Source: a virus
Direction: 5' to 3' (one strand)
Virus record (IMG/VR): IMGVR_UViG_3300025005_000002
Coordinates: 1-64,000 of that record
DNA length: 64,000 bases
This document shows positions 46,187-57,146 of this stretch, in pieces. Both the position numbers and the translations under genes were made by a program. The notes below the pieces were generated by a model. It had not been told where the DNA came from. It did no database searches and worked only from the letters and a program-made list of their open reading frames with translations. Every line of letters begins with the position of its first letter. Position 1 is the first letter of the stretch.

Positions 46187-46277
46187 TGCAACAAAATGTT
46201 GCGTTACTGGATAACCCATGCAACATTTTGTTGCACCCCCATGCAACATTTTGTTGCACCCATGCAACATTTTGTTG
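46187..46277. repeat. Four palindromic operator-like boxes TGCAACA-NNN-TGTTGCA
   Basis: Boxes at 46187, 46219, 46242 and 46263; the first has an AAA spacer and the others TTT; first and last differ at the terminal base. Confidence 0.85.
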
Positions 46278-46290
46278 TATATAATATTTT

Positions 46291-46590
46291 AAATATATCC
46301 TTAGTTTTATTTTAATACCCCTAAAAATATATCCTTAGTTTTATTTTAATACCCCTAAAAATATATCCTTAGTTTTATTTTAATACCCCTAAAAATATAT
46401 CCTTAGTTTTATTTTAATACCCCTAAAAATATATCCTTAGTTTTATTTTAATACCCCTAAAAATATATCCTTAGTTTTATTTTAATACCCCTAAAAATAT
46501 ATCCTTAGTTTTATTTTAATACCCCTAAAAATATATCCTTAGTTTTATTTTAATACCCCTAAAAATATATCCTTAGTTTTATTTTAATAC
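46291..46590. repeat. Nine tandem 34-bp repeats without spacers (iteron/origin-like)
   Basis: Unit AAAAATATATCCTTAGTTTTATTTTAATACCCCT; seven full identical copies at 46323-46560 plus truncated first and last copies. Confidence 0.95.
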
Positions 46591-47730: not shown

Positions 47731-48327
47731 TTATATATAGAGAGTCTGGTCGTGTACAAGGTCATAATATACTATATATTATAATACGGAGGGGGCCCAA
47801 TTTGGATATACACATATTTTTCACGGAAATAATATAGATTCATGGATAGTGATATAGATTCACGTCTCAGATTATTGTGCGAGGCCATTTTTGCTCTGCC
47901 GTGGTCCTTTGGTGGTAAAAGTAAGATGGACAAAGTTTGGAGTAGATTAGTATATGCTGGATATCTAATTAAGAATTACCAGGAAGTAGTGAAGGTCCAT
48001 ATTTAGTCATGATGTACTTGTGCACGTGTAATAATAATGAAGGTGGAAAGGGTATAAACAAATATATCACCAAATGGGAGGTATGGAGAGCCCTTAGGAA
48101 CGCAGAAATAGCAATGTTAAAATACAAAACAAAAGGAGATAACAAATGATTAAGATCATGATAATCATCTTCGTTTTAATATTTGCCCTATACATTTTAC
48201 GAAAAGTTGCCGAGTACAATTATAAACGGTGGGGTAGATTCGATGAATAAGAAATATCTAAAGTATGATCCGTTACACCAGCAAGGAAAGAGAGGAAGGG
48301 GAAAAAAGGAATGATGACGAAAGAAGC

Positions 48328-51300
48328 GCCGCCGCGCCAGCGGCGAGGGGAGGGAAGGATGAAGCCGATCAAGGCGTGGGCGATAGGAACATTTTCGGGC
48401 GGTAAACTGTTGGGCATCGTTAGATACCAACTCAAAATGAAGACGAGGGAACCGTGTCTATACCATACCAAGGCTGACGCGCTCCGTGATGTCGAAATTG
48501 CCCTGCCGGAGGATATAACCGCTCGCCCCGTCCGCGTGACGATCACGGTGGAGGAATAGGGGGGAGAGATGATGGAAAGATGCGGCAAATGCGGGATGGT
48601 AGAGGAAAGTTCAATCCACGACATCAACAGTCCAGATACAGAAATACGAAGGGTGGCGCATCACTTCGAGTTGGTAGCCCCATGCCCTCGATGCGCCATA
48701 AAGGACGCCGCCCTCGCCGCCGCCAACGCCGAGAAGGACTTCTGGAAGTCGCACGATAAAGATGCCGACATTGTACGCGATTCCTACAACAAGGCCATTG
48801 AGGAAAGCGATCTTATTCGCGCTGACCTCGCCATCGCCAAGGCCGAGCTGACACGGCTGCGGGAGGCGATTGGGTGGGCAGAGTCTCACGCCCAAATATA
48901 CGCCACTGTCGGCGGATATAGATACGTTGATTTCGCATCCGAACTACGTCGCCGCGCCGGCGGCGAGGGGGAGGGCGGAATGATGTGGTGGTGCTGTTCC
49001 GCAGACTATCCCGATCACGATGAGAATTGCAAAGGAGGTGAGGGAAGGATGACGAGTGATCTTACTTGTGAGGATTGCGGGAGGGAGTTGCAGTTTGGCG
49101 TGGATGGGGTTTGTCGGTGTGGGAAACAACTATGCTTTGACTGTCACGAAAAGAATCACAAACGTTGCTATGAGATACCGGTACCTGGTGTGAAGGTCCC
49201 GGTGGGGGAATAGGAGGGGACGTGGACACTATAAGTTGTCAGCATGGCAATCTCGCCCGGTCCTGCGAAATCTGTGCATTGATCGCCGAGCGGGACGCGC
49301 TGAGGGAGGAAAACACCCGGTTCCGAGAGAAGCTGGACCGGGAGAAGATGGCGAAGATATTATGCGGCGGCAGAATGCGATGGAACGGGCTGTTCGAACT
49401 CACCCGCGACGGGTACAGAAGCGATGCCGACGTCCTGATCGCCTATCTTACCGAGTAGGAGGGGAACATATGTTACACCCGAACACAGGAATTGATCTCG
49501 GCAGGGAGGCTGACGAGGTTCGCAAGGAGAACGCCTCCTTTCGCGCCGCCCTCGCCGCCGCCGACGCGGAGCTGACGCGGCTGCGGGAGAGTAACGCGAG
49601 TCTGCTTGAAGGACTAAAATGCGTTGCCGACTTCGCATCCATGCCGCCCCGCGTAAGCCATGGCGCAAGTAACGGGAAGGATGAAATAGACAAACTGATC
49701 GCGGACATCGCCCTCGATTTATTGAAGCGGGTTGAATATAGATTGAGCCGCGCCGACGGCGAGGGGAGGGAAGGATGAGCATTAATTGTGGATCGTGCGG
49801 AACGCCGTTGTACCACATTGACGAAGCCTGCCCGAATTGTTTGGCCGGGTCTCGGCTTGTCGATAGGCCACCAACACACCATATTCTCCCATGCCCCCAA
49901 TGCGCCCGCTTCCGAGAGAAGTTGGACAGGGAGAAGATGATTGAAACGGTGCTCGCGGGAACGAAAGGGGTATGGACATACGATACCCTTACCGATTTCC
50001 TTATTAAATATCTCACCGAGTAGGAGGAAACAATGTACCAAGTATGCACGTGCCCGCAGTCGAATCTTACGGACGGGGATCCACATTGTTCCGTTCATGG
50101 GCAACCGTCGGAGTATAAGACTTATTCGTATTGCGAATCCTGTGTCGCCCTCCGCGCCGACCTCGCCGCCGCCAACGCCGCCAAAGAGGAAGAACAGAAG
50201 CGAAAGGAGTATTACCAAAATATCGTCTATGCGGTATGCAACGTACTCGATAAAATAAACGGATCGGCAATATGTTGCGGTACGAAAGACACTCCAACAA
50301 ATGAAGTCCAGGAAGCGATGTGCAGTCTGCAATCGAGATTGGCGGAACACACTCGCTGGGTATTACTAAATGCTGTTGATAAGAACGCATTACAGGAAGC
50401 GGAGGCCCACGCCAAGCGCCTTGAGGAATATATGCTCAAGGGCGTCGCGTTCAGGGATGAACTGCAGGCCCGCGTGAAAGAGTTGGAGTGCCAGAAGAAA
50501 GCACTCCAGCAAGTGAACGGGGAAACGGAATACAGGTTGTGCATGATACGGGAGGCGATAAAACGGAATGTAATAGACGCGCCAGACTTGCAGGCGGGAA
50601 ATATGAACGAAGCATATTTGGCATCTCTTGAATTGCAGCGTAGGAAAGAAGCCCTTACTGAAGCATACACCTCTTCCCCCCCATGCCGACACGAAGAGGA
50701 AGCGAAGCGGCTGAGGGAGGAATCACAAAGTGGGTTGGCGATGACTTCCTGCCCAGTCTGTGAGAGTGATGGCGCAAACACAAATGAATACAGGATCAAC
50801 AAGGAAATACACCGGCTACGGGAGGCGGTGGAATGGGCGCTTGGCATGTTGGATGACAATTGCGATCGGAGGTATATCCAATCCGAACTCCGCCGCCGCG
50901 CAGGGGGTGTCGAATGATCGCCGCCTACCTGAAGGAGGGAAAATGATGACGAAAACCGAGTGGAAGGATTTCGAGCGGGTTGAGCATCTGGCTGATGCCG
51001 TGGATAACCATGGCGTCGGATTCGGGAACCCACCAATGGATGACCAGATGGCTAGAACTATCCTCGCCGCCTATCGGGAACTGAAGGAACGCCGGGAGGA
51101 CGAAGAGTGGCTGAAAAAGCATTACGCTGATCTTATCTATCGTAATGACGGTGCGGTCAGTCTCCATGCGGCAGGAATAATCGGCAGGGCTATAGGACCC
51201 ACCCTCCACGACGCTGTGGACGTCGCCCGGGGAGGAAAATGATGACGTTGCAGATGCTGTGGCTAACCGTTGTTGTCATAGTGGGGTTCGCATATGTGAT

Positions 51301-51639
51301 TTACTTATTGTGTAGGATATTTGATGCGATCAACGCCGCACGGGGGAAATAAAGATGCTGAAGGAAGAGAGAGTATTCCGCCTGCGACTCAAGAAATTGT
51401 GCGGTATTGCCAACTGCGACCCACGCCCCATTCTTCGAGAACTAACATGGGTCGTGAAAGCCGTCCGGGAGGACGATGCGAAAGTGGTTGAAGGATGCGG
51501 AAACGACGAATTATATGAAGCCATCTCTGATGCTGTCCGGAAGGGGAAGCCGGTGCAACAGTGTACGTATTGCGGCTTAATGAAAGAAAATATTACGTCC
51601 AATGGTGAATGCAGAACGTGCCGCGCTGCGCATATATAA
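48328..51639 (+). other. GC-rich island of short genes built from shuffled repeated modules
   Basis: Abrupt GC rise; repeated junction blocks; genes 48359-48559, 48569-49213, 49222-49458, 49470-49778, 49775-50023, 50033-50917, 50943-51242, 51355-51639. Confidence 0.75.
50033..50917 (+). CDS. Coiled-coil/Cys-rich mosaic hypothetical protein
   Basis: AGGAGG RBS; CxC, CxxC, LRADLAAANA and ELRRRAG modules. Confidence 0.6.
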   Translation: MYQVCTCPQSNLTDGDPHCSVHGQPSEYKTYSYCESCVALRADLAAANAAKEEEQKRKEYYQNIVYAVCNVLDKINGSAICCGTKDTPTNEVQEAMCSLQSRLAEHTRWVLLNAVDKNALQEAEAHAKRLEEYMLKGVAFRDELQARVKELECQKKALQQVNGETEYRLCMIREAIKRNVIDAPDLQAGNMNEAYLASLELQRRKEALTEAYTSSPPCRHEEEAKRLREESQSGLAMTSCPVCESDGANTNEYRINKEIHRLREAVEWALGMLDDNCDRRYIQSELRRRAGGVE

Positions 51640-51848
51640 CCGTCTTCCGCGTTAAAGGAGAATGGGGATGTCTGAAATAAAGATTAGTTGTAATCAACAA
51701 GTTACGGCATTCCTTTACCAAGCCATGATGTATTTGAATCGTCGGCGGCATATGTCCCTTGCTCTGACAACCAATTTTCGCATAAGGGTAAGGCTACACA
51801 ATTTGTGGCAAAGGGTACACGGGTTATCATAACATGAGAGGAGAAAAT

Positions 51849-52103
51849 ATGAAAATAAGAAAGGGTGATATATATGAGGATTGTGCGTTTCACCCGGTGA
51901 GGTGCGAGTATATAAATGGCGATGATATCGAAGGGGTGTCATTACTTGATGGGTCCCGACCGCGCAGATGCAGTATACGGCATTGTGGGGTACGCAAAAT
52001 GACCAAGGATGAAGCGGCAGGTACAATTGCGATTTATGGGCAAGGAGGGGAGCAGGGTTTGTGGGAATATAAAAAACAACAAAGGAGTAACAAAGTAAAA
52101 TGA
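51849..52103 (+). CDS. Cys/His-rich hypothetical protein
   Basis: GAGGAG RBS; YEDCAFHPVRC...CSIRHCG. Confidence 0.6.
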   Translation: MKIRKGDIYEDCAFHPVRCEYINGDDIEGVSLLDGSRPRRCSIRHCGVRKMTKDEAAGTIAIYGQGGEQGLWEYKKQQRSNKVK

Positions 52104-56063: not shown

Positions 56064-56138
56064 TATGAGAGGACAGCGACAGGTGCGGTTGTCGTGCGTG
56101 GATCGAACCGCAAATTCTTGCCACGCAGTCCTCTCATA
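56064..56138 (+). ncRNA. Predicted three-way-junction RNA with loop-loop pseudoknot
   Basis: 11-bp P1 56064-56074/56128-56138; P2 56076-56095; P3 56096-56126; loops tgcggt/accgca complementary; strand assumed. Confidence 0.5.
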
Positions 56139-56141
56139 GAG

Positions 56142-56382
56142 TAGCACCAAGAAGGTAGCCTTAATGTTACACACAACGGGAATGTACCCAACACTCTGGT
56201 GGGCAAAGGGAGGCCCTGACGGAACCGAAATCCGTTTACTGTTTCTCCCAGTACGATCTCACATCTTTACAGCTTAAAGGGTCACTGTCACTTTCCCAAC
56301 GTGTATAATATTCAAGGTGAGGGCGGGTATGGGGGACTCTTGCTTCGATGAGGAACAAAGAAACAAGGGTCGCTTGGTGCTA
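56142..56382 (+). ncRNA. Structured element copy 1 (unknown family)
   Basis: Closing stem tagcaccaag/cttggtgcta; long stem 56159-56174/56301-56317; blocks shared with copy 2. Confidence 0.6.
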
Positions 56383-56396
56383 TAAAAGGGGTTGAT

Positions 56397-56945
56397 ATGA
56401 AAATTTGTTCTCATTGTAAAATTGAAAAACCTAGGAGTGAATTTCATAAACACAAAGCAAATAAAGATGGGTTAAACTATTGGTGTAAACCCTGCAATCG
56501 CACAGCAATTGGACAGTACCGGGCCACACCAAAGGGGGAAGAAGTAAAGAGAAAAATCAAGAAGAAGTACCGGACTACACCAAAGGGGAAAGAAGAAAAG
56601 AAAAAATCAGACAAGAAATACTGGGTTACACCAAATGGGAAATTATCTAAAAGAAAAGGAAAACTAAAACAAAAGTATAATATTACTCTTAAGGATTACG
56701 ATAAGATGTTAGAGACTCAAGGTGGGGTTTGCGCCATTTGTGGTACTGATAAACCAGGAGTTGGGTTTAATCATTTTCTTGTAGATCACGACCATAAAAC
56801 TGGTAAAGTTAGAGGTTTGCTTTGCAATATATGTAATATAATATTAGAGTATCCAAATGGACCTATTATGGATGGCATTCGATCCGCTTCTGTTGATTTA
56901 ACTGAGAGATATCTAAATATTATTAAGTATTTAAATAACAGATAA
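56397..56945 (+). CDS. HNH endonuclease, endonuclease VII type
   Basis: N-terminal CxxC...CxxC; KYNITLKDYDKMLETQGGVCAICG...VDHDHKTGKVRGLLCNICN. Confidence 0.85.
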   Translation: MKICSHCKIEKPRSEFHKHKANKDGLNYWCKPCNRTAIGQYRATPKGEEVKRKIKKKYRTTPKGKEEKKKSDKKYWVTPNGKLSKRKGKLKQKYNITLKDYDKMLETQGGVCAICGTDKPGVGFNHFLVDHDHKTGKVRGLLCNICNIILEYPNGPIMDGIRSASVDLTERYLNIIKYLNNR

Positions 56946-57146
56946 CGCCAAGCAGGTAGCCTTAATGTTGTATGTGATAAGGGATAAAAACTTGACAGGG
57001 GAAAAGGGGAGCCCATGCGGGCCTTAAATCCGCTTACTATAATTCCCTATACGATCTCACATGTCACAGTTTAACCCTAGGGTATGTCATTGTTATCTTC
57101 CCAACGCATATAATATTCAAGGTGAGGGTGGGGCAGGGGGCTGGCG
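56946..57146 (+). ncRNA. Structured element copy 2 (unknown family)
   Basis: Long stem 56960-56976/57105-57122 with compensatory changes relative to copy 1; shared tacgatctcacat and tataatattcaaggtgaggg. Confidence 0.6.

Follow-up and report, generated by a model that had tools for sequence, protein, structure and literature searches.

Tandem copies of a structured RNA on either side of an HNH nuclease gene in a large uncultivated phage

The locus and its two repeated elements

The window, i.e. the whole 64,000-nt stretch of DNA analysed here, comprises the initial 64 kb of an IMG/VR virus record with a length of 178 kb. It is AT-rich, its long ORFs are almost all on the + strand, and hardly any of its large proteins has a PHROGs match. 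The locus in focus runs from a 308-aa gene through a DUF6847 gene, a Lar-like gene and a 77-aa gene to a 75-nt three-way-junction element, which is followed by a first structured element (c1), an HNH gene (PF02945) and a second structured element (c2); genes for proteins of 96, 76, 65, 49 and 118 aa come after c2. Most relatives of the DUF6847 protein at ~50% identity come from Clostridia and Bacilli, which is a weak hint only as to the host.

The elements c1 and c2 (Table 1) are paralogous direct copies with ~70–76% identity (76% by MAFFT). Both were also recovered as repeat families (D5 and D9), and they were the only copies that covariance model R1 found in the 178-kb genome. A sequence-only reading of the window had described two copies with a set of shared motifs, one ending just before the HNH RBS and the other starting at the base after the HNH stop, and these motifs and coordinates agree with ours: both copies are on the + strand, c1 ends 14 nt 5' of the HNH ATG (56397), and the first base of c2 directly follows the stop codon (56943–56945). 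For P1, the hairpin P4 and the closing stems, too, that description was borne out. In each copy the 3' strand of the closing helix P0 is complementary to that copy's own 5' strand.

The 75-nt element at 56064–56138 (+ strand) lies 4 nt 5' of c1 and is separate from the c1/c2 family. It resembles a three-way-junction RNA with a 10-bp closing stem and two hairpins whose loops are complementary, and it has no Rfam or tRNA match. It occurs only in this phage and in the relative R (L060:822-896), being absent from the relatives L063, L064, L065 and L074; a comparison by eye with the version in R indicates that each of the three stems, as well as the loop–loop pairing, has undergone compensatory changes.

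Table 1. Positions in the window of the two elements, their parts and the gene between them; R1 and R2 are covariance models
Feature	Positions	Strand	Evidence or remark
c1, complete structured RNA including the 37-nt inserted hairpin	56142..56382	+	R1 212 bits, R2 189 bits
c1 P0 closing helix, 5' strand	56142..56151	+	10 perfect pairs with 56373-56382
c1 P0/P1 internal loop, 5' side	56152..56158	+	AGGUAG invariant in 8/8 sequences
c1 P1, 5' strand	56159..56174	+	pairs with 56301-56317, one bulged C
c1 head domain	56178..56297	+	P2, P3, P4, possible pseudoknot stem S1, invariant UACGA, variable hairpin region
c1 P2	56178-82 with 56293-97	+	
c1 S1, possible pseudoknot stem	56201-04 with 56213-16	+	
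c1 P3	56208-12 with 56245-49	+	
c1 P4 hairpin	56219-23 with 56231-35	+	
c1 P1, 3' strand	56301..56317	+	
c1 G-rich 3' side of P0/P1 loop	56318..56335	+	GAGGG.GGG....GGGG invariant in 8/8
c1 inserted hairpin, between G-rich loop and P0 3' strand	56336..56372	+	alignments
c1 P0, 3' strand	56373..56382	+	
HNH / endonuclease VII gene, 182 aa	56397..56945	+	PF02945, E = 1.6e-22
c2, structured RNA without hairpin insert	56946..57146	+	R1 188 bits, R2 198 bits
c2 P0	56946-53 with 57140-46	+	
c2 P1	56960-76 with 57105-22	+	
c2 P3	57006-10 with 57043-47	+	
c2 P4	57017-21 with 57029-33	+	
c2 G-rich loop	57123-57139	+	

Relatives of the element and support for its fold

Through the neighbouring genes we found six distinct full elements in addition to c1 and c2 of the window, which makes eight in six related uncultivated phage lineages; the six are c1 and c2 of the relative R (contig L060) and one element each from L065, L064, L063 and L074. 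The relative R (contigs L032-L035, L059 and L060) was reached via the closest HNH homolog, P0004 (78% identical), and the other four via graded DUF6847 homologs. The full elements of the relatives were found by covariance models R1 and R2, with R2 scores of 184–236 bits, and the pairwise identity among the eight ranged from 65 to 96%. L065 has a second, truncated copy, which is additional to the eight full sequences.

The gene order around the elements differs between the lineages. The window has c1, the HNH gene and c2, and R has c1, a 190-aa gene, c2 and then the HNH gene. In L065 a gap of ~10 nt without any gene separates c1 from the c2-like copy, and L063, L064 and L074 have one copy each and no HNH gene nearby. 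The 190-aa gene of R (L060:1097-1669), which has no Pfam match, fills the spacer between the copies, and this spacer seems to be an insertion hot spot. In L073, whose DUF6847 protein is 77% identical, the 250 nt available downstream hold no element, showing that the element is not universal in the clade. The two c2 copies of the window and R are 96% identical, and their flanks 78–87%; with regard to the c2 core (56943-57139 against L060:1667-1862), such identity could reflect either strong constraint or recent exchange of the copy.

Wider searches added no members. Exact and gapped motif scans of viral contigs gave chance matches or none, and no other IMG/VR contig with the element. One motif scan of metagenome contigs gave 19 chance matches with a pattern that was too strict and used the P4 loop AAAU, later seen to vary in the relatives, and one scan of genome contigs gave seven chance matches, none of which fitted model R1. 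When the neighbours were used instead, the 308-aa protein had no relatives among viral contigs and the 96-aa protein led to near-identical contigs only. All members come from one small group of related uncultivated phages with genomes of ~180 kb, and this narrowness makes its value moderate at present.

The fold was scored on an alignment of the eight sequences (A9) comprising 40 base pairs and 313 pair cells, of which 94.9% were paired. Compensatory double changes were seen at 11 pairs, compared with 4.8 ± 1.5 in shuffles (0/500), a control that is inflated by relatedness as all homologs come from one narrow clade; when the pairing partners were slid, at most six double-change pairs were obtained. 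Five of the double-change pairs fall in P1, which has 16 bp and one bulged C, whereas P2 is consistent with pairing only. P3 (GGGAG/CUCCC) and the P4 hairpin are both 100% paired with two double-change pairs each. P0 also has two covarying pairs, and its pair 5/216 changes from A-U to G-C in relatives (four A-U, three G-C). About 37 of the 313 cells are G-U and about 16 are unpaired, several of the latter being misaligned P0 3' ends of two rows. Since G-U pairs are frequent and would be A-C mismatches on the other strand, it is the + strand that folds as RNA. The folding energies are unremarkable (z = -1.5 and -0.8), so that the evidence for structure is covariation and not stability.

Some of the proposed pairings fared less well. 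S1 would make an H-type pseudoknot with P3 and shows wobble changes only, with no double change. No compensatory change was seen for the CUCAC/GUGAG pseudoknot of the sequence-only reading, and two relatives have a weakened version of it; the tggg/ccca stem of that reading is not a conserved pairing, as the relatives favour GGGAG/CUCCC (P3) instead. A further hairpin, P5, was discarded: it has no double change and is broken in L063 and L064. An all-against-all scan of column pairs in the alignment revealed no further covarying helix.

Taken from the outside in, the predicted fold would start with P0 and continue through a large asymmetric internal loop (AGGUAG on the 5' side, GAGGG.GGG....GGGG on the 3' side), the 16-bp P1 and the short P2 to a head with P3, P4 and several invariant unpaired stretches. 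In total, 52 unpaired positions are invariant across the eight elements, including those two loop sequences as well as UACGA and UUCCCA. Its closed stalk, its invariant G-rich loop and the many unpaired bases that never vary are traits typical of functional RNA.

Two other explanations of the conserved sequence were tried and rejected. The element does not read as a coding sequence, for it carries indels of 1, 2 and 7–8 nt, and a 42-aa ORF of c2 is absent from c1. A TATAAT in the 3' strand of P1 is not a conserved -10 box, and it covaries with the partner strand.

With regard to known families, Rfam 15 gave no match in the window at gathering thresholds, and at E<=10 none on the elements in the window region or in the relatives L060, L064 and L065. 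Together with the covariation over eight distinct homologs, which supports P0, P1, P3 and P4, these searches bear out the earlier suggestion of a new non-coding RNA class. We thus regard c1 and c2 as confirmed members of a new family of structured RNA of ~205 nt, found neither in Rfam 15 nor in the limited literature that was searched, and this adds a well-supported RNA fold from large uncultivated phages.

Membership in several other classes was also considered and rejected. A group I intron with a homing ORF does not agree with copies that are homologous to each other and each closed by its own P0, nor with an ORF that neither fold encloses; a host gene split in two is not visible either, and RF00028 was unmatched. 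A riboswitch does not agree with unrelated downstream genes, and no terminator or RBS-masking helix was found. A MITE, a REP-like repeat or an integron attC site was rejected on the grounds that there are two copies in 178 kb, which are syntenic in the relatives, and that a search for the PF00589 integrase found none in the genome. Similarly, a retron msr-msd RNA was rejected because RVT_1 was unmatched anywhere in the genome (no reverse transcriptase), and a tRNA or tmRNA because ARAGORN finds neither in the window.

The distribution and the covariation also bear on the idea that the element works as DNA, being a recombination site, a MITE-like repeat or a cassette boundary that shuffles its neighbours, with folds that are secondary. 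Several observations agree with this: close relatives differ in the genes that precede, separate and follow the copies, P0 resembles a 10-bp terminal inverted repeat, c2 is better conserved between the window and R than the flanks are, and nuclease genes have been reported to mark exchange boundaries in phages (PMC10448857). Yet there are one or two copies per genome, at a constant syntenic place, and neither an integrase, a reverse transcriptase nor a consistent target-site duplication was found. Moreover, covariation is seen within the internal helices P1, P3 and P4, and G-U pairs greatly outnumber non-pairing cells, which points to a folded + strand RNA and not to duplex DNA. We therefore consider a DNA-level element very unlikely.

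The HNH gene and the inserted hairpin

The PF02945 match of the HNH protein spans positions 3–81 of 82, indicating an intact nuclease domain. This domain is preceded by a Cys-rich N-terminal region and three 17-aa basic repeats, and no RuvC or RNA-binding domain was detected. The basic repeat (Y-R/W-x-T-P-K-G...) is encoded by three tandem 51-nt units at 56515-56667 (repeat family D3); it is also present in the R homolog and in a paralog near 175 kb, and could serve the nuclease in binding DNA.

The paralog (175114-175734 of the genome, outside the window) is 48% identical and has the Cys-rich region and the basic repeats too. It sits directly behind another ORF and has no RNA element. The same holds for the HNH homologs P0005 and P0006 (48–51% identity), which lie directly behind other genes with no upstream gap and no element. 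Moreover, the place of the HNH gene is polymorphic among the relatives: in the window it stands downstream of c1 and in R downstream of c2, the c1/c2 junction of L065 lacks it, and no HNH gene lies near the single copies of L063, L064 and L074. An intact nuclease domain and polymorphism in both presence and position at conserved flanks are two of the traits that are looked for in a free-standing homing endonuclease. Since the placement of the HNH gene varies, the RNA occurs without it and HNH homologs occur without the RNA, the gene appears to be mobile and its association with the RNA incidental; our reading is a nuclease gene of the homing type that is free-standing and independent of the RNA.

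This distribution does not agree with the three HNH-centred functions that the sequence-only reading had offered. These were a ribozyme pair excising the HNH message, a guide or scaffold RNA associated with the nuclease, and the two ends of one mobile element. All three are contradicted by the elements of L063, L064 and L074, which have no HNH gene, by the adjoining copies of L065, by R, where another gene occupies the spacer and the HNH gene comes after c2, and by the HNH homologs and 175-kb paralog without RNA. The proposed linkage of element and HNH gene thus fails in four lineages. In more general terms, an RNA that partners the HNH protein or acts on its message is suggested by the elements adjoining the gene on both sides in the window and by the hairpin insert that co-occurs with it (see below). 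Against such a partnership stand the four lineages with the element alone, the homologs and in-genome paralog without it, the protein itself (182 aa, endonuclease VII type, with neither of the domains mentioned above) and the arrangement in R, where one copy alone touches the gene. We consider it extremely improbable. The distribution thus corrects the HNH-centred reading in that it speaks against a nuclease that is guided by the RNA or released by a ribozyme.

Among known systems, the HEARO/omega RNAs of IscB and IsrB (RF02033) resemble our element in being structured RNAs of a few hundred nt beside an HNH-containing gene, but there is no Rfam match here, the protein lacks RuvC, bridge-helix and PLMP parts, and RNA and protein occur without each other. 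Membership in the IscB/IsrB group, where a protein of ~350–500 aa with a split RuvC, and in IscB also an HNH domain, obligately co-occurs with its RNA, was rejected for a 182-aa protein with PF02945 only.

Instead, we prefer the joint reading in which the tandem paralogs c1 and c2 belong to a new family that acts as RNA and the HNH gene is an independent gene of the homing type; we put its probability at roughly 70%. Free-standing HNH homing endonuclease genes, such as mobE, are found in T4-type phages (PMC2790892, PMC2988022), and nuclease genes are also reported at boundaries of exchange (PMC10448857). Like these, the nuclease gene described here is small and squeezed in between conserved sequences, its place varies in close relatives, another part of the genome contains a second paralog, and mosaic breakpoints flank it. 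It differs from them in encoding an endonuclease VII type nuclease (PF02945, known here from sequence) and in landing at the 3' end of an RNA element, where it is accompanied by a hairpin inside the element.

In the alignments, the two elements with the HNH gene downstream, namely window c1 and R c2, carry homologous versions of this 37-nt hairpin and the other six do not, so that its link with the HNH gene is drawn from two related cases. It lies between the G-rich loop and the 3' strand of P0 and leaves P0 intact. When c1 of the window is compared with c2 of R, 78% homology runs unbroken from the 3' half of the element through the hairpin into the HNH gene. We infer that the hairpin, the P0 3' strand and the HNH gene move as one cassette. 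Following the preferred reading, the HNH gene would have inserted into the ~10-nt spacer between the copies in this phage, with the conserved 3' end of the RNA gene serving as homology and as the probable target or landing site of the nuclease. The hairpin would then interrupt the target site while sparing the RNA fold, and could thereby represent an immunity change against the nuclease. If the homing part of this reading is true, the locus is an example of homing nucleases that colonise non-coding RNA genes without breaking them.

A bolder version can be put forward tentatively, although we think it is more probably wrong than right. Here the invariant G-rich P0/P1 loop and a pseudoknotted head would make the RNA a ribozyme or an RNA capturing the ribosome or RNA polymerase, and the endonuclease VII-type homing nuclease would be specialised on this very RNA gene, inserting at its 3' end together with a replacement P0 3' strand and a harmless hairpin, by which the RNA is kept working and the nuclease's own target is destroyed. 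Such an arrangement, if true, would be the RNA-gene counterpart of homing by nucleases borne on introns or inteins.

Transcription context and possible roles of the RNA

The elements occupy the same part of one operon, downstream of the 308-aa gene and the DUF6847 gene. In six of the eight, the upstream ORF ends with a stop codon that overlaps P0 or directly adjoins it, and the next ORF has its own RBS 7–50 nt after P0, i.e. outside this helix. No promoter or terminator of its own was found flanking the element, the promoter scan giving nothing on the + strand. The abutting stop codons and the lack of such signals suggest that the element is co-transcribed within the + strand operon, and it would be made as part of a polycistronic transcript. 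According to the preferred reading, the RNA would subsequently be excised as a stable non-coding RNA or else be retained in the mRNA.

The immediate neighbours vary widely. Upstream we found the DUF6847 gene, the Lar gene, a gene for a 68-aa membrane protein, the three-way junction, the HNH gene or the 190-aa gene, and downstream the HNH gene, the 190-aa, 96-aa or 73-aa gene, a 308-aa-like gene or the other copy of the element. This variation argues against a regulator of one specific gene, and it bears directly on the possibility of a cis-regulatory leader, i.e. a riboswitch or protein-binding operator controlling the translation or transcription of the next gene. The position of most elements, 7–50 nt 5' of an RBS, would suit a leader, as would the aptamer-like character of a pseudoknot-capable head with many invariant unpaired bases, and tandem aptamers are known in riboswitch biology. 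Nevertheless, the downstream partners differ nearly every time and do not make up a coherent regulon, neither a terminator nor an alternative helix that would sequester the RBS was seen, and the RBS lies outside P0. A leader is in our view unlikely, and the RNA module would not be a switch for one particular downstream gene.

It could also be asked whether the stalk formed by P0 and P1 is all that matters, as it would be in an intercistronic site of mRNA processing or stability, for example of the RNase III type. RNase III sites lie between the genes of phage T7; both these and the put antitermination RNAs of HK022 are repeated cis-acting structures in early phage transcripts, and they are simple hairpins of 60–70 nt. 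The element resembles them in that similar RNA structures are repeated, here at intercistronic positions within one operon, and its ~25-bp stalk with an asymmetric internal loop recalls sites of the T7 R1.1 type. It differs from them in its multi-helix head and its long G-rich loop. The head domain and the 52 invariant unpaired positions exceed the needs of a processing hairpin, and the G-rich loop is invariant. We thus find a mere processing site decidedly unlikely.

Returning to the reading in which the element acts as an RNA in its own right, the conserved G-rich loop at the P0/P1 junction would be the place through which a factor is bound. As guessed from the sequence, this factor might be a protein, the 30S subunit, which could recognise GAGGG as Shine-Dalgarno-like, or a cation if the loop is of the G-quadruplex type. 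A C-rich partner for the G-rich loop was found neither in the element nor in the phage genome, and no antisense targets above chance were detected in the phage's own genome for the G-rich loop, the junction motifs or the copy-specific segments.

Among other phage RNAs, the orphan RNAs ROOL and GOLLD (10.1101/2024.12.08.627333) resemble the element in having an intricate, covariation-supported fold and in being sometimes multi-copy. The element is much smaller (~205 nt), is confined to a narrow clade, lies between ORFs without a promoter of its own, and shows no sequence or model match to them. A catalogue of ~8,500 candidate structured RNAs of 29–151 nt from IMG/VR, which needed at least three IMG/VR regions per candidate (PMC10690425), deals with the same kind of object and the same kind of data; judged by its description (length and region count), our family is set apart from it.

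Two other parts of the window have repeated sequences. At 46291-46590, in an ORF-poor stretch, an AT-rich unit of 34 nt is repeated perfectly in tandem (8.8 copies, 100% identity), and ahead of this array a 23-nt unit occurs three times (46214-46277); the array could be origin iterons or a repeat-RNA gene. A GC-rich island at 48000-52000 (50–53% GC compared with ~36% elsewhere) contains several internal direct repeats of 30–50 nt with a spacing of ~600–800 nt, which suggests tandemly duplicated genes of foreign composition.
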